The position numbers and the translations under genes are program-made. From positions 1-45,534 of the forward strand of contig JADIIX010000160.1 of NCBI GenBank assembly GCA_027604505.1: DNA of 45,534 bases. The letters are read 5' to 3'. Origin of the DNA: Gonapodya sp. JEL0774 (Eukaryota). The notes under the pieces are model-generated. The model was not told where the DNA came from. It did not search any database and saw only the letters and a program-made list of their open reading frames with translations. Shown here one piece after another: positions 15,383 to 45,534 of the stretch (its first letter is position 1; the number at the start of each line of letters is the position of its first letter).

Positions 15383-18300
15383 CTAAGTCATCCTTGCCCA
15401 TTTACTCACTGCCGCCTTCTTGTCCCCTTTCATGTCAAGAACGTTCTTCATCATCTTTCGCACATGCTTAAACCGCTGCGAATCCCGGAAACACGTGATT
15501 GTTGCGGCGGCGAGTTCGCGGAACTGGAGTTCACCTGGAGGGAGCGATTGTTCCGAAGTGGGGTCTTCAGCGGGAGGGAGCGATGTTTCCGAAGTGGAGT
15601 CTTCAGACGGAGGGAGGGGCAATGCTAAAACTGGAGTGCGCGATGGTTCTGAGTTCGGATCTTCGGCCAAGAATTCGAGTGGCAATGCTAAAGCTGGAAC
15701 ACTTGAAGATGGTACCGAAGGGAAACTTGACCGGCCAGGGCGACAATCTCTACAAGCCATACGTTCTGGATGCGGGTCTTCGGCCAGAGGCAGCGGCAAT
15801 GCTAATTCTGGAACGCTTGAAGATAATACGCGTTGAGGCGAGCTTGACCGGCCAGAGCGCGGCCTTCTTTAAGTGACGAACGGAGCAGCAACATACACAC
15901 AAAAAGTTGTCGTCATTATCGTTTACCGAAGAACGAAGAACAAAGCTTTGTTAGCATTGCAATTGATGCGACTGCTGCACCCGAACACCAGGTTGGAAAC
16001 TTCCAATAAAATGTACCTGATATGTGATCCAACCTCTACCATGATTGCCCAGCGCATCGTTTCGGATAAAATAAACTACTCACTTCAAAAACCTGGGAGT
16101 GGGTGGCAAAGAAACTGTGGGCGACGGGCCCCTCTTTGTCTTATGTGCACCTGGGAAAATGCGTAGCGATTTTGGAGCATGAACAGTCGTTGTGGCTGGT
16201 GGAAGTTGATGGGTTTTAGATCCCTTGCGCAGAAGCGGTGTTGCGCTTGAGCTCGAACCGAGGATTGTGGACGTGGAAGCTGGCATGGGTCGCCCGAGTT
16301 CCCGACGAAAGCTGCGAGGTTGTGCTACAACTACATCAGCCAACTTTCCTGGTGGGTGACGCGTAGTGTCTCCTGAGGGCCTTTCCCCGCGGTGATCAAG
16401 ATCATCAGCCTCTGTGCCGCCCTGTTTGTTTCTGTTGGACGATTGCACGTCCCGATCAGACGGCTGTAAGCTATCCATAGTGGCATCTAGTGCAGGAAGC
16501 GGTACTTCGGGTGGTGTGATACGACCTTCTGGGATAATTGTTTTTATTGGGATGTCTTCTTGTCGGCCATCACCTTCACCTTCGAGTGGATAATCCCAGT
16601 CTACCGTAGCATTGTCGTTGGGGTACCGATCGGAGCCATCGTCGGAGTCGGGCGAATCGCGAAAGTCATTCGGGTCGCGGTCGCTGATCATGTCGAACAT
16701 GCCCCTGGAGTCGTCCGAGTCCTCGGAGTCCTCGGAATCAGACTCAGACGCGAGACGACCAGTGCCATCGACACTGCCCCCACGGTGGTCGTCGTAGTAT
16801 CTGTGTTGGTCCACCTCCAAGTCCATTCCAAGCGTCTCGTTCTCCGGGACGCTGTTATCAGCCCAGAATCGTTGGCCATTGAGTGTTTCCGGCTCACCGT
16901 TGCAATAATAATCCTCGTCCAGCTCCATATCGTGCTCCCTGTCGGCAGTCCCCAATGGCGACGGGTGCTCAGGATCCTTCCCCTTGCCACCCTGCTTGGT
17001 CCCGTTCATGTCCAGTTCTGAATGATCCACCTCGGTATCCATTTGCACATTATTCCGCAGGTCCAGATGCCTATAGGCTGGTGAGTCTCTCGCAGGCGAA
17101 CGGCGTTTCTTATATCCCCCATGCCCCTGCTCCCTCACTGGCTCATCGCGAGTTGCTGAAACAAAGTCGTGCCCACGCGATCCAGACGGTGATTTCAATG
17201 AGGATACCATTACAGAAGTGAATGAATTCCCAGAATCACCCGATACACTGCCCTGGATAACAATAGTGGCTTTGGTGTTGGGGCGCAACATAGATGGACG
17301 AGGAGAGCGAGAAGGAGTGGAGTTGGGGAGAGCCTTTGATGGGGGCGTGGTCAAGGAGGATGGGGGGGCTGACAATGGGCCTACGGGGAGGAGTGAGGAG
17401 GGTGATAGTGGCGGCGAGGGTGTGCGTCCGGGTGATGGTGTTGGCGAAGGTGAGGAGGCGGGACGGCCACCTTGATGCATCCCAAGAGGTTACAGCAGGA
17501 GAATGCACGGTTTTAATTGAAAGGGCAGTTGGATGAACACGAAAGATGTTCAGGTTACCATTAGACAATTGAGCGAAGAAAAGAACAAGCAATAAACGCC
17601 TGTAAAAGTTGAATGGCCGGCGCCATTAACTCACGTTTCAAACCCGACGAACCAAAACTTTGCCTTGAAACGCGGGTATCCTGTGAACCTCTGTCTTCAT
17701 CCAAGGACGCTCTGGCCTCATTCACGGACAAACGATCGTCGAAGGCCCGTTGGGCGGGTGAGGTAGTTTCGGAGTTGAAGGAGAGGCCGGGGGACAGCGA
17801 TGAGGTGAATCGTGAGTTGGTGCTTTCGAGGGATGGGAGGGTGGGGTTGTGTGTCATGGAGCCGGAGCGGGACGGAAGTAGTGCGTTAATCGAGTGACGG
17901 CCCGAACGAGCTGGGAATGGTGGGTGGGGACTTGAAATGTTGCTAACATGTAAAATGTCGAAAAAGGATGGTGACAAGTGTCGAGATACATCGAGCAGGG
18001 AGTTTCTAGTTCGCGCAGGAGAACGGATGTCGGCAATAATCTCGTCGACATAGTTTTGTCTCGGTTTGTCCCATAAGGGTGACATCGGCTGTGCCGGCTG
18101 CATCAGCTCGGATCTCCACGCTCCCAACGCCGAGTCGCGCTTAATTGTCCGCACTCGTTGTGGCGTTGGTGGTATCTCTTCGTCCATGTCGCGTTCAGTG
18201 TCGTGGGCTTCCTCCCAAGCCTCTCGACAGACCTCTCTCGCGGCCTTCAACCCCATCCATTTCCGTTTCCTGCGCCCCTTCTTGTTCCGATTGCGCTCGC

Positions 18301-18388
18301 GGCGCCGCTGATCCGCCTCGGTAACGGCCAAAACTTGCTTCATAGTGTCAGAGACGAGTGAGGGCGTCATCGCTTCCAACGTCCACAT
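15383..18388 (-). CDS. Low-complexity, intrinsically disordered protein(s), S/P/D-rich with a basic NLS-like stretch; probably spliced
   Basis: Collinear minus ORFs 17561..18388 (RRRERNRNKKGRRKRK), 16080..17480 (466 aa) and 15383..15799. Confidence 0.4.
15537..15835. repeat. Coding tandem/dispersed repeats
   Basis: 36-bp tandem pair at 15537-15572 and 15573-15608 (ggagggagcgat..ttccgaagtgg.gtcttcag). Three copies of ggcaatgctaa..ctgga further on. Encodes SLPPAEDPTSE and PALALPL repeats on the minus strand. Confidence 0.8.
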
Positions 18389-18710
18389 TGATCAGAGATT
18401 CAAGTAAATCTCCCTCCGGCGATGGCAATCAGACATCTTTTCTGTACGGCCCCCTCTTGTTCCGATGTCTCAGAATGCGTGGCAGTTCGTCCCATCAAAA
18501 GAGGAAGTGCCAAATCCACCAGAGGAAAGAGCACGCCCAAAAAGAGCGAAGAACCAGAACTGAAATTCACTCTGTTAATGTAAACAACTAATAGCTACAT
18601 TCCGTTTCGAGTATCATTCGTCATGTCTTGGCTGCAAACATAAGACTGCTAGCACTGGATACTCTGACGTTCCGTCCCCAGCTACATTATATGGCGATCC
18701 GTCAATCGTA

Positions 18711-21020
18711 ATGTCGAACGCCGGTATTTTGTTTTTGCGGGGGTGAGTACTGTGATACCAAAACCGAAGACCTTTGAACCCTAAGTTCGATCATTATACT
18801 CAACTTCATATTCTGATATGTATATTCAAAACGCTCCTCGACTCTATCACACCAAATGCTGCTGAAATCGTGGTTCATCTGAAGAGAGCTCCACATGCCG
18901 GCTCAGCGATGGTGTTCGACATCAACACGACCCTCGCAGTCGCATTGGAGAAGATTCTTTCTGGCGGCAAGGCAGATAGTACTTTCATAACGTATGTTCT
19001 TTCAGATTAGTGCTCAGTTAACTGACGGATGGCCAAAACCTTGTCCGTTTACTTTCATGACCCTTTCTCCACATTAACCAGTTACGAAAACGCGCTCATT
19101 TGCATGGAATCCCTTCTGGGGATCAACGGAAGACCAGTTCCAAGAATCGAAGACGAAAAATTCTCCGTGGAATGTCTGGACATGCTCAAACTCGCTCTCA
19201 CTATCAATTGCTCCAGGAGCTACGTTGAGAAGCACACAGGAAGGCCCACAAACACGCGAATGATGACAGACGAAATTAGCAGTAAGTTTTCATCGGAAGG
19301 TTTCCCTTTGTGATTGTTTCTAAGGCCACGTTCATCTCGATCATATTCCGATTGGGTGTCGACTGCACTTCCAGACGAGCGTGTCATGTTCGGTCGTATT
19401 CCCGCGCGTGGTTTGTCCATGTCAACTGCAAGAATTTACGTCGCAGCCATGAAGTTCGTCTTTGGACAGCTTGGGATGAATAAACCTTGCGATCCCGGTG
19501 AGAGACAGTTCATAAACCTTCTCTCTACACATGTGGTGACACTGTAACATGCTAATGACCGATTCTTACTCTCTAGTAACGAAACGACGCAACTACGCCA
19601 AGTTTGATGACATTGAGGTCTATTTGTACGATTTTGTTCGTCTTCTCCTCGTATTGATCCAACTCATATCAAACTCACACTTTACGTAATCAGAACCTCA
19701 TGGCCAGCCTGAACCGGGACTACAAGACCGATGGAGGATTAGAACGCCATGCGCCCATCATGAGTGTCCCCGACATTCTAAAGTTCTACCGTTACTGTGA
19801 GCAAGGGGATCGCGAAGGTCGTCCTCTCTATCATGCGATGCAATATGTGCTGGTGTGTATACCAGTCACAAAAAGCACGAAGTCGATCTTCTTCTAACTA
19901 TAATTGACTAGGTTCTTCTCTCCACACTTACCACGAGTCGTGCCAGTGCGATGATAAACGTGCGCAGGAAGAACATCAGTTGGGGTCTACTTGTTCCAGG
20001 AACGTCAATCCCCCAATGGTACATAATCGGATTCGGAAAAGATAAGAACGAAAGCGGATGTGTGTCCTCCTTTTGTAGTCACTCCTTACTGGATCAATCA
20101 GGGTGCATACTAACTGCCTGATCATTCTCTCTTTATCGCTATCTGCACTTCCTTGGACAAGAACAGATCATGAGAAGATCATTATTCTTCAACTACAATG
20201 GACTTCCAGAGCTTTGTCCCTGTACTCAACTGACTCAGTATCTCAACCAAAGTGTCAAGGCCTGCCCAGACTCCCCGTGGCTGTTCCCCGCTTACACTCG
20301 TGCCGCAATATCAGGAACTCTCGTCCCTGAGCGTCACATACTCAAAGCGAACTTCGAAAATGCAATTGCACGATTCACGAGCGTTGTGGACGGTAATCCG
20401 CTTCCTTTTGCTGGTCTGCGACGTAAAGGCGCAGTAGCAGAAGATGCCGAGAACGATATCGAAGGAAGTGACTTGGACTATGGACAAGCGGAGGCCACCG
20501 CAGATGTCCTAGATGCAGATTTGAGCTTTGAGGAGGAAGGTGCATTGGAATTGTGCTACACGCAGGAGGGCTGTCGTGGTGTTCGTTACACCACACAGAG
20601 CTGCCGTCGTACTGGTGGGTGTAAAATAGTCGACAAGAGCCGTTGAATGCTCTTGGTTTGACTTCAATTGCACCTGCATAGGGATCACAATGGCGGAACG
20701 TGCCATTTGGGTGGTATTGCGAGATTTCGCAGTCGTGATATCCAGAGCAAGCTGAGCAGGCACAGAACGTAAGTTTGGTGAAGACCATCTGAGATAGTGT
20801 CATCTACTGGATGTTGTCCATTCCACTCTCTAGTCAATCGATCTATGACCTGTACGCTATGGACGCGGCTGATCTCCATGATCGCGCCGTGCGCAAGTAC
20901 GGGTTTGATCCAGTTGCCTCCGTTTATTCCTGGGAATCAATCGATCCTGACTTTTGTGGAGCGGCATCTGATATCCCCGAAATCCGAGCGAAGAGGATCC
21001 GGCAAGCGGGAAACCAGTGA
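18711..21020 (+). CDS. Intron-containing tyrosine recombinase (Crypton-like; no RT adjacent)
   Basis: Core-binding-like LSMSTARIYVAAMKFVF and linker RHAPIMSVPDI. Catalytic set: R in LTTSRASAMINVRRKNI (19939), K in GKDKN (~20040), CPCTQLTQYL, WLFP, box II YTTQSCRRTG (20587-20616), and SRHRT|QSIYDLY with H-x8-Y spacing (H 20761, Y 20853; intron 20769-20833). The start codon is uncertain. The junction at 20614-20682 needs an alternative donor or a 1-bp frameshift. Confidence 0.75.
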
Positions 21021-21259: not shown

Positions 21260-23035
21260 CTATATTGGCAACGGGAGATGTATCAGTTCTGCGGTATTTT
21301 GTAGATGCGGCTTCACTCGATTGAACCAGTGCAGTACACGTCTCGAACGTGCGTCTGGATGATGCGAGCGATAAAGAGCGATTAGTAGTTGCCTTTTTAC
21401 GACAAGTACTTTCGAGTGAAGCGCCTTCATGATCAACATCCATGTTGGAAGTGATGAGGTGGTGAATGAACTTGATGACTGAGCCAGCTGATTCGGGTGA
21501 ACTCCGGACGTCCACCATCTTTCCGGATCACGGATACCGTAACGAAACGCGATCGCACCACGTACAAGTGAGGTTGATGAGCGATCGTCTCGATATACGA
21601 AAAGAAGCCCAGGTCTTGACGGATCGAAAAGCCGATCTCCTCGTATTGCAGTCGTCAATATGTATCTCTCGGCCGGAAACACTATCGCAGACTAGTCTGG
21701 TTCATCGCTCGCACTCGCGGATTAACAGTATACTATGAACTTGGTATCACGCTGGAATTCGGAGCTTGTTACATGCGAGCTTCTCCGGTTGCTCAAAGGG
21801 TCCTGAGTGACCGGATGGCAAATTACACCACATGAAAATTGTTGGTGGGCGGCCGGCACTGATTCATTTACTACTGCGGTTCGTGGTGCTATTCCTTTTC
21901 TGGAAAGGGGACTATTCCTTACCGATGGCCATTTCAAGAGAGTCCGAGGAAGAGTCCGAGGAGGAAAGTTGAACACGGGTGCTTCAATTGATATTATGTC
22001 TTCGCTTGTCATGTCCCGACTACACATATCACAGAAGTACTGCACTGGATTGGCATAAGTTTAAGTTGAGTTCCACTGCTGTACGGGTAATGCCATATTG
22101 TCTATTGAATCGTTCAACATCGAAGCCAACGTCCTTCAGCGCAGCGTATATTTTGCCGTAGTGTGACAATTTCTTTACCCATTGACGGGCGCCACGGTTC
22201 AGTACCCTTAAATACGTCCGATGTTCTTCGGTGACATTGATGTCGGTGCCCGGTTGGTTGCGACGAGCAGCATGAAGGATCTTTGGTGAGTGTTTGAGCG
22301 ATTTCCCGTTTCTGGTCAATCCAGAACCCTTTTCCCACTGTTCCTTCAGGATCCGTATGTCGTACTTCCAGTCCGTGAAATCCTCCGATGTTTGTGCGTA
22401 ATGGACCTCTGCAAATAGTGCGCCGAACAATGTCCGTGCAGTGGAAGAATATGTCACAATGAATCTCCCGACACTGAGGGGGACAGATTGTGCATACGAT
22501 AAAACGGTCTGAGAAGCTGCCATCGTGGTTGCGCTGCAGATCGACCAGGCTTCTACGCGCGCTCCGCGCCTTGACGGTGTGCGAGGATGAAGCCTATTTA
22601 ATGAAATGAACAGTATGAACTGGCTGACGGTGATATTTGTATACCGCCGCGAGTGGGTAATACTTTCCTCTGGCATTGCGACTTCTTCGTCTCACGCAAG
22701 GTTTTCGCAATCCATGCTTTTTCAACCCAGTCCACAGTGCCAGTGAAGACATCAGCATTCAAGCCTGTGTCAGCTGGCTTCGATACGGCTCCCAGAAATT
22801 GGAGGGTAAATGCCGGAACCATTTGACAAGCAGGATCGACGTGGTACATTAGCGATTCCCCAAACTGGTTGTGTCGAAACTCCGCCATTCGCAATCCATC
22901 GGGGATACCGTCAAGCAGCTCATGAAGTGCTGAAGTAGTATCTCCAAGTGGAAGTTGAGCTTTCCGTTTGTAGTTTCCCGAGCAGTGCCCAGCACTTGAT
23001 GGTATTTCGATCAGCAGTCCACCTGCTGGTAGCAT
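21260..23035 (-). CDS. Hypothetical protein convergent with the recombinase (spliced or frameshifted)
   Basis: Collinear ORFs 22598..23035, 22029..22676, 21722..22045 and 21260..21682. Possible CxxC...CxxxCH (FCDMC...SCGVICH). 12-bp in-frame duplication at 21939-21962. Confidence 0.4.
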
Positions 23036-28501: not shown

Positions 28502-28800
28502 TGTCAGGGCGTGGCCTGACAAGGTATTCTGGATCAGATGACACAGATCGGACGCTGCGACGTCAATAGAGTGAAAGANNNNNNNNNNAACTTAAATATA
28601 TTTCGATTCATATCATACAAATTGCACAGTTCACAATCGAACTATAGTCCAGTCCATTAGTAGACTTCTCACTCTGTCCCCGTCACTTTGACCTTGTACT
28701 AACCCTCGCTTCCTGTGACCTCGGGTCACATAAACACTAACACTTGGCAGACACACTTACACACACTCAGTCCCTCATAGCGTAGACAACCCCCTTAACA
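28502..28800 (+). repeat. 5' LTR (interrupted by scaffold gap)
   Basis: 28502-28578 matches 32533-32609 and 28589-28800 matches 32771-32982, identical by eye. Confidence 0.9.
28579..28588. other. Assembly gap (10 N); about 161 bp of LTR is missing
   Basis: N run. The corresponding 3' LTR segment is 32610-32770. Confidence 0.95.
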
Positions 28801-28802
28801 TC

Positions 28803-28816: not shown

Positions 28817-29332
28817 AGTCGAAACTTGTTCCGCGGCATCTTTCTCTAGCTTATCTCTCGGGTACTCTCACAACGGCTCGTCCCTTTGACCCCTTCGGTG
28901 TGGCTGACACATCACACCCAAACATCATCAACGATCTCTCATACTCCCTCGCTCAATCATTTCATACAATTTTATCAGAACATCCATCAATAAATCTCAG
29001 CTCATTTCACTCGGAACCTGAAGTTGCCCCTCCAACCCTCGATCCTTGTCCCTGAACGACCCTGTAGTGCGCCTCCGCAGATTACACTTCCAGCAGACTA
29101 TCTAGCCACAATCGACACATCGTTTTCAACTCTCGTTCATCTCCCTCGGCGATACTCCCCTATTCCAGTGCCACCTCTTCTGTCATCACCACCCCTTCCC
29201 CCATCACCAACACCAGGCTCACATCTCGCAACCCCACTCATAGTAGCCTCCGACATCACCATTGAGCTCGCAGCAGACCCAGCACGCTCCCTATTAACTC
29301 TTTCAAGTCGCACAGCTCACACATCTCCTGCA

Positions 29333-30403
29333 ATGGCCACCGGTACTCCAGTTGCACCAGTCTTGACGTTCCCCCGTGATGTGAAAGAGCTCAAGTTCCC
29401 TCTCGCAGACTTTGACCCAAAGGATCCAATTGGAAGCTTAACTCGTTACAATACGTTCATAGATAATGTTAAGAATCATATCAAGTTGAAAGATATTCGC
29501 GAGTCAAATCAACGGATCGCAGCCATCGCTCACAACATCCCCGCTACTGTCCGCAACCGAATGCCCACGACAACTCTCGGAGATAACCCAGACTGGGACG
29601 ACTATCTTGAAGCTCTTGATGGTGCTTACTTCCCTCGTAACTCCGCTCTGTGGCATCAAACTCTCGAGCAAATGATTTGGGACCCAACACAACGCTTCTC
29701 CAATCACGTTATGGATTACAAAACAATCGCTCATCGCGCTGGAATCATCAATCTTTACAACCCGGCAACTTTAGACACAGATCTTCGCAATCAACATCTT
29801 TGGTACTATTTTTGGAAAGCTTTACCCCCGGCACTTCAAATGTATATGTCCTTATGTGGAATAAAAACTCTCGCTGACCTGACGGACGATAAAATTAGTG
29901 CAATTGAGGAAAACCCGCATCTCTCTCCGTCGCCACTCCTACTGTTTCCGGCTAAACACAACCCGAGCACACACCTTGCCTCCGTTCAGGCATCTGATCC
30001 CATCGCGACTCTCACTCAAACCTTAGACGAACGCTTCGCTAGAATAGAGAAAGCATTCGAGAATATGCATGTCACAATCGCAGCCTTACAAACTCCCTCG
30101 GCTCACTCCCCTGGCAATCCCCCACGTTACGCACAACAACACAATTTCCGCGTGCCATTCACTCAAAACAACTCTCACAACAATGGACAATTCTTGCAAC
30201 AGAACAATGACAAAGCTTACGATGGAGAATTCAATTGTTATACATGCGATCAGCCTGGACACACCTCGCGCAACTGCCCATATAAGAATCAAATTGTAGC
30301 GCTCGCAAGACAGTTGCAGAATATACAGAATGCTTCAGCTGCAAACGCTCTTCCTGCCCCCGATAATCTTGGTACAGATGGAAACCCCCCGAGAAACAAT
30401 TAG
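29333..30403 (+). CDS. gag: Retrotransposon Gag with CCHC zinc knuckle
   Basis: ORF 29024..30403 with first ATG at 29333. CYTCDQPGHTSRNC fits C-x2-C-x4-H-x4-C. Capsid-like helical region (WDDYLEALDGAYFP). Confidence 0.85.
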   Translation: MATGTPVAPVLTFPRDVKELKFPLADFDPKDPIGSLTRYNTFIDNVKNHIKLKDIRESNQRIAAIAHNIPATVRNRMPTTTLGDNPDWDDYLEALDGAYFPRNSALWHQTLEQMIWDPTQRFSNHVMDYKTIAHRAGIINLYNPATLDTDLRNQHLWYYFWKALPPALQMYMSLCGIKTLADLTDDKISAIEENPHLSPSPLLLFPAKHNPSTHLASVQASDPIATLTQTLDERFARIEKAFENMHVTIAALQTPSAHSPGNPPRYAQQHNFRVPFTQNNSHNNGQFLQQNNDKAYDGEFNCYTCDQPGHTSRNCPYKNQIVALARQLQNIQNASAANALPAPDNLGTDGNPPRNN

Positions 30404-32532: not shown

Positions 32533-32982
32533 TGTCAGGGCGTGGCCTGACAAGGTATTCTGGATCAGATGACACAGATCGGACGCTGCGACGTCAATAG
32601 AGTGAAAGATCGTATTTTTGTAGTTTGAAAAGGCGTTACAGAACAATTTTAGAAGTTCTACAAGAGACGGAATAGATGGAAGTTGGAGAATAAAGGCCAC
32701 AGCGCTCCTCATGACCAAAGCACGAAATGGACTATAAAAACCGTAGCTTCAGCTTAGCTTAGATTTCTACAACTTAAATATATTTCGATTCATATCATAC
32801 AAATTGCACAGTTCACAATCGAACTATAGTCCAGTCCATTAGTAGACTTCTCACTCTGTCCCCGTCACTTTGACCTTGTACTAACCCTCGCTTCCTGTGA
32901 CCTCGGGTCACATAAACACTAACACTTGGCAGACACACTTACACACACTCAGTCCCTCATAGCGTAGACAACCCCCTTAACA
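32533..32982 (+). repeat. 3' LTR (450 bp)
   Basis: TGTCAGGG...CCCCTTAACA imperfect inverted ends. TATAAAAA at 32733. TGTGACC-TCG-GGTCACA hairpin at 32896-32912. Preceded by a weak purine-rich tract (GGTGGAGTAG). Confidence 0.92.
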
Positions 32983-34054
32983 TGGTATTGACACCGCGCA
33001 CCGGGCCTGGGCGGTGTGACCACATCTCACAATGGGGGGTGCTCTCATTGCATGAGCGCTGGCAAGTTTGATTCGGAGCGCGGAAAATTTCTTGTAGGCC
33101 TTCTAATTTTGATTATACAATGCCCATCCATCGGCCATCCACCGTCAAAAATGCCCACCCTCCCCCCCACCTTCGCCTACCCGCACACCATATGTGCCTT
33201 TGGCCGACACCGATCCAACCAATCAAATCTATCCAACCACCCGGCCAGCTGTTGAACCCACTTCCCTCAAACTCGGGGGCCGGGGGCAGCGGGGGTGGCG
33301 GTGAGGGCGACACTGTGGGCGGTGGTTGGTGGCGCACGTTCCACGGGTAGGAATGGGGTAAGCGGAGGGTGCTGCACCGGCGTGTGCGTGCCGGGGGTGC
33401 TGGGAGCGGGGGAAGGAGCGGGTTGGGGGGGAGGAGCAGTGGGCCTGCGTGTGTGTTGTGGCAGAATGTGGCGGGGTGCGGATACGTGGGTCGGTGGTTG
33501 AAAGGGGGGGTCGTGGAGCACCCCGCCTCCCAACCTCGTACTCACCACACGCAACGAAAACCGGTCCTACAGGGATTAACTGTGCTTGTTCTTTGCATGT
33601 TCTGGTGGTGGGGTGGCGGCCGGAGGGGTGGGTGGTGATGGGGATGGTGGGGGAAGGGGAAGCGCGGTGAAGGGGGAAATGTGGCAAAGTGGGAAAGATG
33701 AAGAAGAGGGACCGAGGGTGAGAAAAGAGCAAAGGACCGTCGCGCGCCGTGAGTCAGGAGTACGAGAGAAGGTGGGGGGCGGAGGGGGGGAAGGGGGGGG
33801 AAGGTGGGACCGGGGGCGCAGGTGAGCGCTGGTCATGAAAGATGGAAAACAAGAACAGGGCAGAAACAGCCCAGGGGCCCACCCGCCATTGTGCGTGTGC
33901 CCGTTGGCTCACCCTTCACCACCCGCCGTATCTGCAAGGCCACACATCCTACACAAATTACAGTGTTGTACGTCCCCACACGTCCACGCTGACCCGACAG
34001 GGCGAGACGTGACAGACAGGCGAGAGGCAAGAGCCTCCAGTTCTGGCCAGGAGG

Positions 34055-39522: not shown

Positions 39523-42043
39523 TCACATTTTGTTCAACCATCCGATCGCATCTGCGTCCCCCTGGTCCGCAGATCTCCTGTACCACTTCGCCGCTTCCTC
39601 CAGGTCCATTGCCACACCCCAGCCGTTCTCGAAGCACCGGCCCAGATTGTTCTGTCCGTACTTGTCCCCCTGGTCTGCAGATCTGCGGTACCAGTTCGCC
39701 GCTTCCGCCAGGTCCTTTGCCACGCCCAGTCCACATAGTAGCAGCACCCGATTTCGTTTTGAGCGTCCGCGTTCCCGTCTTGAGCGTTAAAGTATATTAT
39801 TCTCGTAGTGTCGTTCGGTGGAAGCGCAAAAATTTCAGGGTTAGTGGGTCTCAGTGGAGCACTGGTCGAGATGGGTGGAGTTTTCGCAGAACGAGCCTCC
39901 GTCCATACAGTCTCCTCGCGTGTACCTGACACGTACGTTGAATCGTTTCTATGCTGTGGGTTCAGTACTTGAAGGGGACCTGGTTGAGGTTTGACGTCGA
40001 TCGTCTCTGCAGCAGGAGGGAGCTGTCGGCTCTTCACGGTCTGCTCCGCTTCGGCCTGTCGCGCCCTCTCAGCAGCTTCGTATTGCGCCCGCATTTCTTC
40101 GCGAATGCGCAGCTCGGTACTCAGTCGCTCCGCTTCACTCTTTCGCTCTTGTTCTCGTCTCTCCGCTTCGTATTTCGCCTTCCAGTGCGCCTCAGCTTCC
40201 CGGTGCTTGGCAGCATATTCCTCGTGCAGCCGGTCCTCCGTCTGTTTGATAATACGACGGGCATCTCGCACACTCTGAGGGTCATTCAAGTGCTGGAAAT
40301 GTTGCTTGAGATACGCCACAATGTCAGAAAACGTGGATCGACTATTTGGGCTCGCGTCCCAACACCGCCTCACAAGGGCTTTGACAGAATCTGGCATCTG
40401 AGTCGTACTCGGCCGCTCATCTACCGGCACGTCCGTGTACTCATCTATATCGGGCCGTGTCCCGTGCTTGACGTGTACCTGCACAAGCACGTCGTCGTAC
40501 ACCGCGCAGTACGGTACCTGCAGCGTGTACATCTCGTACACGGTCATGGCAAAGGCGTACACGTCCGTCTGCTCGGACACATTGGGAATCATCCCAAATA
40601 TCTCTGGAGCCCACCACCGCAGCGTCCCCGGTCTCTTGACTTTGGAGAGGATCGACACGCGGGTGCTGACGGTCGCAAACCCAAAATCCATAACGAGCGC
40701 GTTCCCAAGGTCGTCCACCAGCACATTGAACCCCTTGAGGTCGCAGTGCAGGATCCCCCTGCTGTGGAGATACTGCATTGCACATGCGATGTCGAACATC
40801 AGCTCCACTCGGTCGGCACGCGGATGGCTCCGAAGGTACGAAATCAAGTTGCCATTGCGTATGTATGGCGAAACCATAAACGGAGGTGCCGCCAACAGGT
40901 TGGCCCCGAACAGAGGCAGAATGTTCGGGTGGTGGAGCCCGTACCACCGCTTCACCTCGTTGCGGAAAAGCTGTGCAGTGCAATCCAACAATCAATGACA
41001 ACGCCATTTTCAAAAGCAAACGTGTGCAGAGCTCTCACCGCCACCAACCTCTCATCCGGATGGTCCACAAGCAAGTCTTTGATGGCTACTCGACGCGTGC
41101 CGCTCCACGTGCCAAAGTACACTTTGCCGTATCCACCGGAGTCAAACGGGCGAGGATCCCGAACTACCTCCGTCGCAGGAATGTGCCACGGATCTTCCAC
41201 GAGATCATGCCCCGAAATCCGAACCAGCGACAGGTGCGCTTTGGCCAGAAGGTCCCGTTCTCGCGGAGTCCCTGCGCCGACACGAAGTGTCGCCTGGATG
41301 GTGCGCTGCACCTCCGGAACTTGGGGCATTTCAAGCTCCAGGGTTGCGAGCACGGTGGCGTCGTTGTTCACCACTTGTTCAAGAACTTCCTGCGAAGCCG
41401 ACTCCACTACGCGGAGGTCGTTGTCGTTTTCTCCGCGCCATTTTTCAATGTCCAACACGACTGCGAGCTGAAGGGAAGCCGAATGCCAAAACGAGTAGGA
41501 TCCACCACTCGCCCTCCCCTAGACGTACCTGGAAATCTGTGACAACACCCTGGAGTCTGTTGCCGTACTCCTCCAGTTCTTTGCGCGTGCGGCTGCTGTT
41601 GATGATACGGAACCACTTCGGTTTGCCTTTGACGAGCTCCAGGTAGTCGGCAATTTCCTTGAGGAATCTGTTTGAACGGGGACACCACCGCGTCGACTTT
41701 CGACTGGATATGGCGAGAATATACGACCCTCGGCCACTCACGCCGTAAACTCTACAGCGTGGACTCTGAGGGGCGGGCTCAGCTTTTTGCCACCAACCTC
41801 CATCCGGTCTGCCATGGCTTTGACGAGCAAGGCGCAGCGGCTGGCGAGACGCACGACGAGCTCCTTGTTGTCCTTGAAGTCCTTGGCCACAGTGTAGACG
41901 GCGCGGAGAGCTTCAGCGCAGGCTCCAAACACGGGCACGGACGTCACTTTGGCGATGACATCTAGCACGGCCGCGACGCCATCAAGCAGATTTTCTCCCA
42001 CTGCTGAATCCACTGCCTTGAAAATGCCTGCCCGCGCCTGCAT
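39523..42043 (-). CDS. MLKL-NTD-like helical domain + TKL-family protein kinase + coiled coil + SEL1 repeats (frameshift in the SEL1 region)
   Basis: ATG at 42043; frame-consistent introns 41668-41741, 41468-41528 and 40971-41038. Kinase motifs SGGYGKV, VAIK, HCDLKGFN, DFG, GTLRWWAPE, DVYAF. N-terminal VPVFGACAEALRAVYTVAKDFKDNKELVVRLASRC...RLQGVVTDFQ. SEL1 repeats GLGVAKDLAEAANWYRRSADQG are reached only through a 1-nt shift near 39735. Confidence 0.85.
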
Positions 42044-42366: not shown

Positions 42367-43449
42367 TCAATCCTCGAGAGGGAGCCGGTTGCCGAGAAAG
42401 TAGAACCTGGCTTTAAGAACTCCCCAGAACTGGGGGTGACTTCGAATATATAATTGCCAAGATTCATCTGACCAGCGACCCATTCTTTGAATAACTGCTG
42501 CTGGTATTCCGATTGCGGCCATGTACATCGCTCCTCCAGATCGGAAGCTGTGGCCCGATAAGGCAAGTTCTGGAAGTACTTGCCTGAGGCTCTGGAGAAA
42601 CCAGTCGCGAGATGGGACTGCCGAGCCGAGAGATATAGCGTATGGGGAGAGATTGGTGCCCGTGGTAGATTTGACAGAAAGGTAGTTCTCCCACGCTGTG
42701 ACTCGGCAAGTTGAGTCTCTGGTTTCGTGAAGCCAGACAGTCAGAGGAATTGTAGGATTATTATGTTTGGCATAAGGCAGTGTTATGCTAAGATATTTAA
42801 TGCCTGCATGTGAGATAGTTCGAATAGAGCCGTGAGGGATCAGTCGGCGGGGGTTGTCCTGGTGTGATCGGGCTGTGAGTCCACCCAACCGGAGCAGACC
42901 ATGGAAAGCCATGGTACAGAGAAGCCAGAATACTGCGTGATTGGGCTGACTGATATTGACCCGACTTCGGATCAGATGGAGGTCGTCGATGGTGATGGGT
43001 TTGGCTTGCCGGAAGGGATTCTTCCGGGGTTCTGCCCTTATTGCGCGGAGAACAGTCTGGATTTGTGGTGATGACCGCGCAGGCCACTCAAGGTCAAATG
43101 CTTTGTGCCAGAATGCTAGGCCGGAGAGGGTCTGGAGGATGGTTGGGTAATCATGAAGCAGCGAGAGGTTTGAGATGAAGGCCGCGAGACCAGACACAGG
43201 TATAGGAAGGGCCAGGTTTTCTTCTGGCATATTTTCGGCTTCAATGAGGCGTTTATAGGAGTTCAGGATGGAGAAGTATCTCTTTAGAGTGCTGTGTTGG
43301 ACTGGTTGGCCCAGTAGGGAGGTGAGTCGTTGCCGCAGTGCGGACGTAGAGGGGAGGTTGATGTCGGCTAGCTGATGTTGTCGGAGAAACGCTTGTGGCT
43401 CAGGGAGCTGTAGAAGCTCCCGGATGGATGGTGGGTTTGGACTTGTCAT
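42367..43449 (-). CDS. Tyrosine recombinase of the retroelement (intact, 360 aa)
   Basis: HGLLRLG (R), YAKHN (K), GHSFRSGGA (HxxR), MGRWSDESWQLY (W...Y). Confidence 0.93.
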   Translation of the reverse strand: MTSPNPPSIRELLQLPEPQAFLRQHQLADINLPSTSALRQRLTSLLGQPVQHSTLKRYFSILNSYKRLIEAENMPEENLALPIPVSGLAAFISNLSLLHDYPTILQTLSGLAFWHKAFDLEWPARSSPQIQTVLRAIRAEPRKNPFRQAKPITIDDLHLIRSRVNISQPNHAVFWLLCTMAFHGLLRLGGLTARSHQDNPRRLIPHGSIRTISHAGIKYLSITLPYAKHNNPTIPLTVWLHETRDSTCRVTAWENYLSVKSTTGTNLSPYAISLGSAVPSRDWFLQSLRQVLPELALSGHSFRSGGAMYMAAIGIPAAVIQRMGRWSDESWQLYIRSHPQFWGVLKARFYFLGNRLPLED

Positions 43450-45230
43450 TTAGACGTGAATAAGGTTGATAGTATTGTTTCTGTATAAGCCGGCTGTATT
43501 GGAGGTACAAATGAAAGTAACAAATTGGATGCAGATAAGGCGTTAACGGCTGCAGCCGTTGATGGGGTGCGCGAGATGAAGTCCGCCAGGTGGTTTTGAG
43601 CACCCGGGATAAAGATGAGCGGCACTTCGCAGCCCAGTTTTAGCTGAGAGAGATACAGCTCGTGGATAAGTGACTGTACAATAGGATTTATGCTCGCGCC
43701 CTTATCAAAAGCTCGTACATTTGCCTCGTTATCTGTGTAGCACAACAGTTTCCGAGATTTAACATAAGGGGCGGAAGTCCATAGAGCTATCCAGACTGTA
43801 GCAAGTTCCAACGTTTGAATGTTGAATTCGTCTGGAAGGTTGTGCGGCCATGGAATGCGGGTGAACTGATAGCCGAGAGTTGCGCCTCTGCATAAAGGGG
43901 TGGAGTCAGTTGTGAACGAAGAGGTCAGAGGGGCTTCCCACTGTGAATCAGCTTGGAGGTGAAGTCCAGGCCATATTTGCAATGCTCTTGACCACCACAA
44001 GAGCTCGCTTTTCATAGGAGAGGAGACATGACGTATGCGGCCTCCCTTGGCTGTGGGTCGGAGCCTCTTCAGGCATTCTTGCGTGAAGGTACGGGCATGA
44101 GGGACGAGTTGTCCATACCAAATCATCCATCCGACAAGGGATTGGAGCTCGTTAAGGTAGCATTTGTCCCTGGATAACCATGTGTCCACTTCTGCGAGGA
44201 AGGAGGCTATCCGTTCTGTGGGAATGCTGATGCGCATTTCTGTAGTGTCTATTTCAAAGCCGACAATATTAATGTGCTGAGAAGGCGGCACACATTTGTC
44301 TACAGCTTCCGGTACGCCCAAGGTTGATAACAGTGATCGGAATTGAAAGAAGGCTTCTGTGGCATCGGCCTTAGTGCCGAAGACGCCCCAAAAATCGTCC
44401 ATGTAATGACCAATTGCTCCTTCTACGCGAAGTTTTGAGTTTGCAATCCAACAAAGTAAATCGGCGAACCGATTCCATATTGCGGGGCTGGATCGTGAGC
44501 CAAATGATAGGAAATAGTCCACATAAAATAGCCCTCGCCATGGGAATACATGGATGAGTTGGTCAATGACCCTAAGGGGGATGAGGCGATAAGCTGCTTT
44601 GATGTCTATCTTGAACATATATGCTCCTGCTCCCATGTAGCGGAGCCATGCTATGACCACTGTTATTCCTTCAAATTTCGTCTTGAATTATGCAATATCT
44701 ATGTGATCGTTTACTGAACTGCCTCCGGGAGGAGAGGCTGATAAGTGAAAGATTGTTCGGACTTTCTGTGAGTGTTTTTTCGGGACCTGCCCGATCGGGG
44801 ATATTTTGGCCAGGGAGTGCGGGGGGGACACAAGGCCGTCTGAGATGCGTCGATTCAGAAGTTCTTCTGCAATGTTATCGTCTATCTTCTCTGAGGCCAA
44901 GTTCACGGATTTCAGGTTCTCTAAAATAACGGCTCATGTGGTCCCTTATATCCGTAGGAGAAACCTGATGTGAATCCTTGAGTTATGTAGTCGATGTTAC
45001 CTCTGTTTGGGTGGTCACGGACTAAGTAGAGAAGCCTTTCAAGGTTAACGGGGCTTTGGCAACTTTAAAGATGGAGGGGTCTAGAGTTGCCATGATGGAT
45101 TGCTCTTCAGGGGTGATAACATATGGTTTTAGCATCGTGCTCTCAGTCGAAGGACCGGACAGAAGGCGGGGTTTGGAGCTAGTACGATTTATTTCTTGAA
45201 AAAGCGCACGTTGGGGTTTTAAGTAGGCGA
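43446..45230 (-). pseudogene. pol: pol (reverse transcriptase + RNase H) with disrupted 5' part
   Basis: RT motifs KIDIKAAY, LSFGSRSSP, HYMDDF; RNase H motifs TTDST, TLEL, YTDN, NHLADFISR. In-frame TAA at 44688-44690 and frameshifts near 44925 and 45025 flanking DHPNRGNIDYITQGFTSGFSYGYKGP. The 5' limit is approximate. Confidence 0.9.
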
Positions 45231-45232
45231 TG

Positions 45233-45534
45233 TTAACGGGCGGGGGTTGGGCCGGAGGTGCGGGGCGCTTCTTTGGCATGATTGACCCGCCGGTGAGCTG
45301 CCCCACATCCTGATATATTGCACATGTGTTTACGACCGGCTGGACAAACATCGGAGCAGCCCCCGTTGTTCCAATTTCTGCAGATAAGCGGGTCGGATTT
45401 GTATGGTCCATAGCGAGGGTTTGTTGAGTTTTGGGTTTTCGTGCGTTGGTTTTGGCCTGACCCTTGATGTTTCTGTGTGACCACTGTGAGATGCCGCGTG
45501 AGGCACATGGGATCACTGCTGAGTAGCGATAGCG
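45233..45534 (-). CDS. gag: Gag-like ORF1 C-terminus with Cys/His zinc finger (partial)
   Basis: CRNWNNGGCSDVCPAGRKHMCNISGCGAAH. The frame stays open to the window edge and overlaps the pol frame. Confidence 0.75.
   Translation of the reverse strand, partial: LSLLSSDPMCLTRHLTVVTQKHQGSGQNQRTKTQNSTNPRYGPYKSDPLICRNWNNGGCSDVCPAGRKHMCNISGCGAAHRRVNHAKEAPRTSGPTPAR

Follow-up and report, generated by a model that had tools for sequence, protein, structure and literature searches.

A nine-exon gene of Gonapodya sp. JEL0774, likely a Crypton-like tyrosine recombinase in a probably disabled copy

What kind of gene lies between 18.8 and 21.0 kb on the plus strand of contig JADIIX010000160.1 from Gonapodya sp. 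JEL0774, a fungus of the Monoblepharomycota? The window analyzed here is the whole contig of 45,534 bases. A first-pass annotation of its letters had proposed a stand-alone, multi-intron tyrosine recombinase, akin to the recombinases of Crypton DNA transposons or to the captains of Starship elements, and distinct from the recombinase of a retroelement in the same window. Our analysis points to a nine-exon gene that likely encodes a Crypton-like tyrosine recombinase and belongs to a pair of diverged paralogs in this genome, with the copy in the window probably disabled. Taken as a whole, we give this reading a somewhat better than even chance, while recombinase ancestry of the product, taken by itself, appears highly probable.

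The gene was rebuilt by script from the plus strand and its stop-to-stop frames. Between positions 18786 and 21020, nine exons bounded by GT and AG, each homologous to the paralog, join into one gene, and with the donor after 20618 they yield an uninterrupted frame of 534 amino acids. The eight introns are 59 to 105 nt long, and every one of them carries stops in at least two of the three frames. They fall within 1.6 kb and are far denser than in the neighboring genes, which consist of uninterrupted open reading frames (ORFs) of 276 to 485 amino acids. The first exon (18786 to 18991, donor GTATGT) shows homology to the paralog from about the residues MVFDINTT, and the N-terminal domain continues through the exons at 19082 to 19281 (donor GTAAGT) and 19375 to 19497 (donor GTGAGA). 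These are followed by a 41-nt exon (19577 to 19617, donor GTCTAT) and by a linker exon with a DGGLERHAPI block (19694 to 19852, donor GTGTGT). The exon at 19912 to 20061, which is 54% identical to the paralog, encodes the candidate catalytic arginine (19939 to 19941, in TTSRAS) and lysine (20044 to 20046, in GKDKNES). The longest exon (20167 to 20614, donor GTGGGT) contains the LPELCP..YL and SPWLFP blocks, an acidic insertion, and the QxxR motif at 20596 to 20607 (QSCRR), in which a glutamine (20596 to 20598) stands where the paralog has histidine and is followed by the arginine at 20605 to 20607. The next exon (20682 to 20768, donor GTAAGT) is read in two frames and carries the histidine of the RH motif at 20761 to 20763. 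Nine residues beyond this histidine (H-x8-Y), the last exon (20834 to 21020) supplies the candidate nucleophilic tyrosine at 20853 to 20855, and a conserved tail (YGFDP..VYSW.S.DPDF) leads to the stop codon at 21018 to 21020, so that the product ends about 55 residues past the tyrosine.

This model departs from both earlier descriptions of the locus. The first-pass annotation had listed roughly eight short exons; its multi-exon outline is retained, and its count gives way to nine homologous exons, with perhaps a tenth upstream of them at the 5′ end. It had also placed the start at an ATG at 18711, in an exon of 18711 to 18742 on the plus strand. This start fails, since the only usable donor of that exon, the GT at 18743, leaves phase 2, and an in-frame join to 18786 is impossible because a stop arises. 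Such an exon would presumably be able to join only an acceptor near 18884. The deposited NCBI model, HDU93_002261 (P0001 here), is a "hypothetical protein" of 404 amino acids. It skips the exon at 19912 to 20061 with the arginine and lysine and the start of the long exon, removes the QSCRR block by means of a mini-intron that changes the frame near the end of the long exon, and uses a donor later than 19617, which adds six amino acids that are absent from the paralog. Judged by alignment to the paralog, the deposited model is wrong and the first-pass outline is nearer to the truth.

The paralog carries much of the argument. A phmmer search with P0001 against a library of 1,835,955,588 representative proteins, at a threshold of E ≤ 0.001, returned two proteins, namely P0001 itself and HDU93_006589 (P0002; E 3.5e-78) from the same genome. 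P0002 is a protein of 622 amino acids, annotated as a stand-alone gene on a 10-kb contig, and it aligns with every exon of the rebuilt model, including the one that the deposited model skips and both ends of the long exon, which that model removes. With P0002 as the reference, 236 of 530 residues of the window gene are identical (44.5%). P0002 has all six catalytic residues (R323, K358, H521-x-x-R524, H554, and Y563), of which the window copy keeps five, with glutamine in place of the first histidine. Identity within five residues of the six sites (32 of 54) is higher than elsewhere (204 of 476; Fisher p 0.016). Both proteins have an acidic stretch before the HxxR motif, with aspartate or glutamate at 26 of 75 positions in P0002 and at 16 of 70 in the window copy. 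The first-pass annotation had claimed R, K, (Q)xxR, H, and Y in canonical order with exact H-x8-Y spacing, and all of these were located, each within a block conserved in the paralog. Since such motifs are easily found by chance in a protein of 530 residues, their weight comes from this conservation.

Additional relatives were sought without success. No relative outside the JEL0774 genome was found in the phmmer library, for which inclusion of other sequenced Gonapodya could not be verified. The longest exon, used as the query of a homology search, recovered P0001 alone, and scans of metagenomes and viral contigs and a tblastn search of phages yielded the query itself or nothing. Queried with P0002, the homology search missed even P0001 and is therefore leaky here.

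The alignment to P0002 also accounts for a junction that the first-pass annotation had treated as a splicing problem, that between 20614 and 20682. With the donor at 20614 and the acceptor at 20681, the window copy reads RRTG-ITMAERAIW against RRTG-IVLAERARM in the paralog, with five of nine residues matching. After the TGG codon at 20708 to 20710, two bases of one codon are left (20711 to 20712), and the homologous reading GIARFRSRDIQSKLSRH resumes one base out, from 20713. Thus, frame 2 fits the paralog up to 20710 and frame 1 fits it from 20713, while frame 1, read upstream of this point, agrees with it at none of nine residues. Use of the alternative donor GTGTAA, with the exon ending at 20618, leaves the frame open, but an unrelated decapeptide, with 0 of 9 matches, then takes the place of the conserved helix. 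On this alignment the assembled window copy carries a −1 frameshift relative to the paralog at 20711 to 20712, a lesion that the first-pass annotation had overlooked and that is the real cause of the difficulty at the junction. Because of the frameshift and the change of histidine to glutamine in HxxR, the window copy is probably disabled as a recombinase. No further lesions were seen in it and conservation is block-wise, which suggests that the damage is recent compared to the split of the two paralogs.

Is the product a tyrosine recombinase at all? Support for this is of a softer kind and came in part from protein language-model neighbors in the ESM Atlas, where two look-ups were made that count as one source. 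With the whole of P0002, the top clusters scored 0.98 and shared 177 to 179 of 256 features; five of the 30 clusters were PF00589 (Phage_integrase), one each was ALOG with PF00589, NDC10_II, and DUF3504, and the remaining 22 had no common family. When residues 262 to 622 were compared with named clusters only, 15 of 30 were PF00589, one was NDC10_II, and three were DUF3504; the other 11 had no common family, one of them being named "Integrase (Fragment)". The nearest clusters were eukaryotic. Among 38,880 PHROGs families, the sole match to P0002 was an integrase (phrog_216, E 0.28), over residues 270 to 339, which span the arginine block. In a low-confidence structural model, a helix with the arginine is followed by three strands, with the lysine in the turn between strands 2 and 3, and then by helices, an order that fits the one expected of a recombinase catalytic domain. 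Collectively, we infer that the product has an integrase fold.

Several results weigh against this assignment. First, searches of reference libraries were negative: Pfam gave no family at E ≤ 10 for eight exon pieces, P0001, or P0002; NCBIfam gave none; PDB gave none by phmmer and none by profile; and tblastn against phages gave none. Second, comparison by hhalign with a three-sequence profile of the recombinase from the Ngaro-like retroelement in the window was non-significant (P 0.11 to 0.53), as was hmmsearch with Z=1 (0.066 and 0.17). Third, the AlphaFold model of P0002, built on a two-sequence alignment, had a mean predicted local distance difference test (pLDDT) score of 32.2 and was unusable for a fold search. 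Two of these points are softened by the behavior of the Ngaro recombinase itself. This accepted recombinase, taken as a positive control, also had no Pfam match and reached only E 0.0033 in PHROGs, so the family libraries are insensitive here; and the profile comparisons were underpowered, because the search for its relatives had yielded only two sequences. A further reservation concerns the frameshift, which rests on a single assembly.

If the gene encodes a recombinase, to which class does it belong? In 100 stop-to-stop ORFs of at least 70 amino acids across 13.5 to 28.5 kb, no reverse transcriptase (RT), gag, RNase H, or methyltransferase domain was found, apart from one sub-threshold chance match, and tblastn with the window's own RT and gag matched nothing else in the window. 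The earlier statement that no gag or RT lies nearby is in agreement with these scans. Likewise, the gene is distinct from the Ngaro recombinase at 42.4 kb (42367 to 43449, minus strand), as had been claimed: BLAST detected no similarity between the two (best E 0.47). Compared to the present gene, with SRH...LY, eight introns, and no RT nearby, the Ngaro recombinase lies beside an RT, forms one uninterrupted ORF, and ends in GRW...LY. The order of the catalytic blocks is the same in both, and the non-significant hhalign alignment is collinear, pairing R with R, CP..YL with C..YL, SPW with SPY, HSCRR with HSFRS, SRH with GRW, and LY with LY. None of the Pfam profiles GCR1_C, DUF3504 (PF12012), NDC10_II, or DUF3435 matched P0001 or P0002 at E ≤ 10, and DUF3504 was seen only among the language-model neighbors (0.94 to 0.97).

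With no RT or gag, no similarity to the Ngaro recombinase, and no specific profile, what is left is a stand-alone recombinase gene, and this fits the definition of Cryptons (Kojima and Jurka 2011; PMC3212892). The Crypton DNA transposons described there (CryptonF, S, A, and I) likewise have a single recombinase gene without RT, and they share with the present family the occurrence in fungi, the lack of long terminal repeats, and the catalytic residues, which here are complete in the paralog; Crypton-related families are also among the language-model neighbors of P0002. However, GCR1_C, the hallmark of CryptonF, is absent from this family by Pfam, the DUF3504 Pfam match of CryptonA is lacking, and the acidic stretch before HxxR and the conserved tail after the tyrosine set the family apart from Cryptons. 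As far as the profiles tell, the gene is assignable to neither the CryptonF nor the CryptonA group, and it is not a Starship captain. Of the dual reading in the first-pass annotation, the Crypton side therefore gains from the full catalytic set of the paralog and the Crypton-related neighbors and loses from the missing GCR1_C, and the Starship side falls away.

Similar genes are known from another early-diverging fungal lineage. According to PMC13465315, Glomhopper, a DUF3504-encoding CryptonA subfamily of the Glomeromycota, comprises Crypton-type genes that bear introns and are often degenerate. Compared to the present family, which has no DUF3504 match and two known copies, Glomhopper was found by DUF3504 similarity and has hundreds of copies. 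A search of full-text literature for Gonapodya, Crypton, tyrosine recombinase, and chytrids or fungi found no Crypton described in Gonapodya.

Whether the family moves, or did so recently, is a separate issue, and several results speak against it. Cryptons are expected to occur in several copies that share their ends and have terminal direct repeats of 4 to 6 bp; here, no terminal repeats beyond chance level were found at the flanks of the gene. The best candidate was an 11-nt exact direct repeat, CGGTATTTTGT, with plus-strand copies at 18722 to 18732 and 21292 to 21302 that flank the gene at a spacing of 2570 nt; a repeat of 11 nt was reached in 16 of 300 shuffles of the flanks, and the pair is given as a lead only. 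BLAST found no second copy of the gene in the window. Only the two copies are known, and their level of identity gives no hint of recent transposition. The first-pass annotation had taken the many introns to argue for DNA-level mobility. Eight of them in 1.6 kb do speak against an RNA copy mechanism, but a host gene of long residence would be just as compatible with them as a DNA transposon. On the other side, although the two copies have diverged by about 55%, the paralog still has its six catalytic residues, which sets it apart from domesticated Crypton derivatives, and no relative was found outside this genome in the representative library. On these two grounds, we lean towards a family that may be mobile or may have been so recently.

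How such a family would work can be outlined from the model proposed for Cryptons (PMC3212892, Background), in which an element is excised as a circle and re-integrated. In an intact member such as P0002, the conserved tyrosine would form a 3′-phosphotyrosyl link through which DNA is cut and rejoined. Such proteins would then move the gene in the form of DNA, which would leave its site as a circle and be inserted again at a short stretch of identical sequence. The window copy would be a relic unable to act alone, unless the alternative donor at 20618 gives a tolerated variant. An extended version of this proposal holds that P0002 and the window gene belong to an unrecognized Crypton lineage of recombinase-only DNA transposons native to the Monoblepharomycota, intron-bearing, marked by the acidic insertion of its catalytic domain, invisible to Pfam, active through its intact copies, and represented in the window by a recently disabled member. 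In this full form we consider the proposal rather unlikely.

The main rival to a Crypton-like gene is a resident, possibly domesticated host gene family derived from a recombinase, which would encode a non-mobile DNA-binding or regulatory protein or a host recombinase. We would put its probability at about one chance among four. It would account for an intron density far above that of the neighboring genes, for the presence of only two diverged paralogs, and for the failure to find termini. It would also explain why the window copy, with its catalytic histidine lost and the following helix reshaped, has nevertheless kept an open, spliceable frame, and it agrees with the NDC10_II and DUF3504 clusters among the language-model neighbors. 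Domestication of Cryptons is documented (PMC3212892), and the Crypton-derived host genes (Ndc10/Cbf2, Gcr1, and the DUF3504 genes) are recombinase-derived, intron-bearing, and non-mobile; the window copy has likewise lost one catalytic residue. However, that source describes these derivatives as having lost most of their catalytic residues and as being widely conserved. Here, P0002 retains all six at about 55% divergence, and no orthologue was found beyond this genome, which is not what a conserved host gene would show, with the qualification already given on how far the library covers Gonapodya.

Less probable still, at roughly one chance in eight, is that the proteins are not recombinases and form a lineage-specific orphan family in which R, K, HxxR, and H-x8-Y are coincidental. 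The non-significance of all alignment-based tests against known recombinases and the failed structure prediction are in its favor, and loose motif sets are common in proteins of 500 amino acids. This possibility is countered by the named ESM Atlas neighbors, all of which belong to the recombinase clan at 0.94 to 0.98; about one in 100 shuffled proteins scores as high as 0.95. Furthermore, the only PHROGs match is an integrase over the arginine block, the sub-domains align in the same order with those of the Ngaro recombinase so that each catalytic residue has its counterpart, and the motifs are located in the best-conserved blocks.

We consider it very improbable that the gene is the recombinase remnant of a dead DIRS-, Ngaro-, or PAT-type retroelement that has lost its RT. 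The contig does contain a Ngaro-like RT with its recombinase at 42.4 to 45.5 kb and a gag-like element at 28.5 to 33 kb. Against such an origin stand the eight spliceosomal introns, the paralog that is also annotated as a stand-alone gene, the absence of any RT, RNase H, or gag trace within 5 to 7 kb on either side, and the lack of similarity to the Ngaro recombinase noted above. That the gene is a Starship captain of the DUF3435 type bordering a giant cargo element can be dismissed as nearly negligible in probability, since the resemblance is only the general one of a stand-alone fungal recombinase gene, no Pfam family including DUF3435 was matched at E ≤ 10, and the host belongs to the Monoblepharomycota, Starships reportedly having been described from the Pezizomycotina.

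Other features of the contig were recorded as well. The Ngaro/DIRS-like element occupies 42367 to 45534 on the minus strand, with an RT ORF at 43446 to 44687 (RVT_1, E 6e-9) directly followed by the recombinase ORF of 360 amino acids, and additional upstream ORFs extend past the end of the contig. The search of 5.8 billion proteins returned two relatives (P0003 and P0004) of this recombinase, for which Pfam had no match. A gag-like ORF with a zinc knuckle lies at 28994 to 30403 (zf-CCHC, E 4.2e-5). Around it, at 28502 to 28801 and 32533 to 32983, are two direct repeat segments of 77 nt and 213 nt that are 100% identical and whose offsets differ (4031 against 4182 nt), which suggests either a pair of long terminal repeats with an indel or split direct repeats. 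The GC (guanine-cytosine) skew is strongly negative at 29 to 33 kb. The element at 28.5 to 33 kb looks like a young, short retroelement with no obvious pol. The divergently transcribed neighbor of the recombinase-like gene (16080 to 18391, minus strand) consists of two long ORFs of 469 and 276 amino acids, rich in serine, proline, aspartate, and glutamate. They match no Pfam family and include a basic stretch at the N terminus. A serine- and proline-rich minus-strand ORF (15383 to 15868) contains, at 15530 to 15860, imperfect repeats, tandem or direct, whose periods range from 36 to 117 nt and whose identity is 66 to 86%. Finally, a minus-strand ORF at 39534 to 40991 encodes a protein kinase domain (PK_Tyr_Ser-Thr, E 5.8e-34) followed by a charged, coiled-coil-like tail, and it has an internal 64-nt repeat (39556 to 39619 and 39664 to 39727, 89% identical).

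The practical outcome of this analysis is that the deposited gene model HDU93_002261 needs correction, as it skips the exon with the arginine and lysine and splices out the QxxR block. The wider significance is modest, since early-diverging fungi are already known to have stand-alone recombinase genes with introns (Glomhopper, PMC13465315). The window gene itself is probably a copy, decaying or repurposed, of a gene type already known from fungal mobile elements. If the proposed Crypton lineage is real, it would extend recombinase-only DNA transposons to the Monoblepharomycota, and it would mean that such elements can escape Pfam-based transposon annotation entirely.

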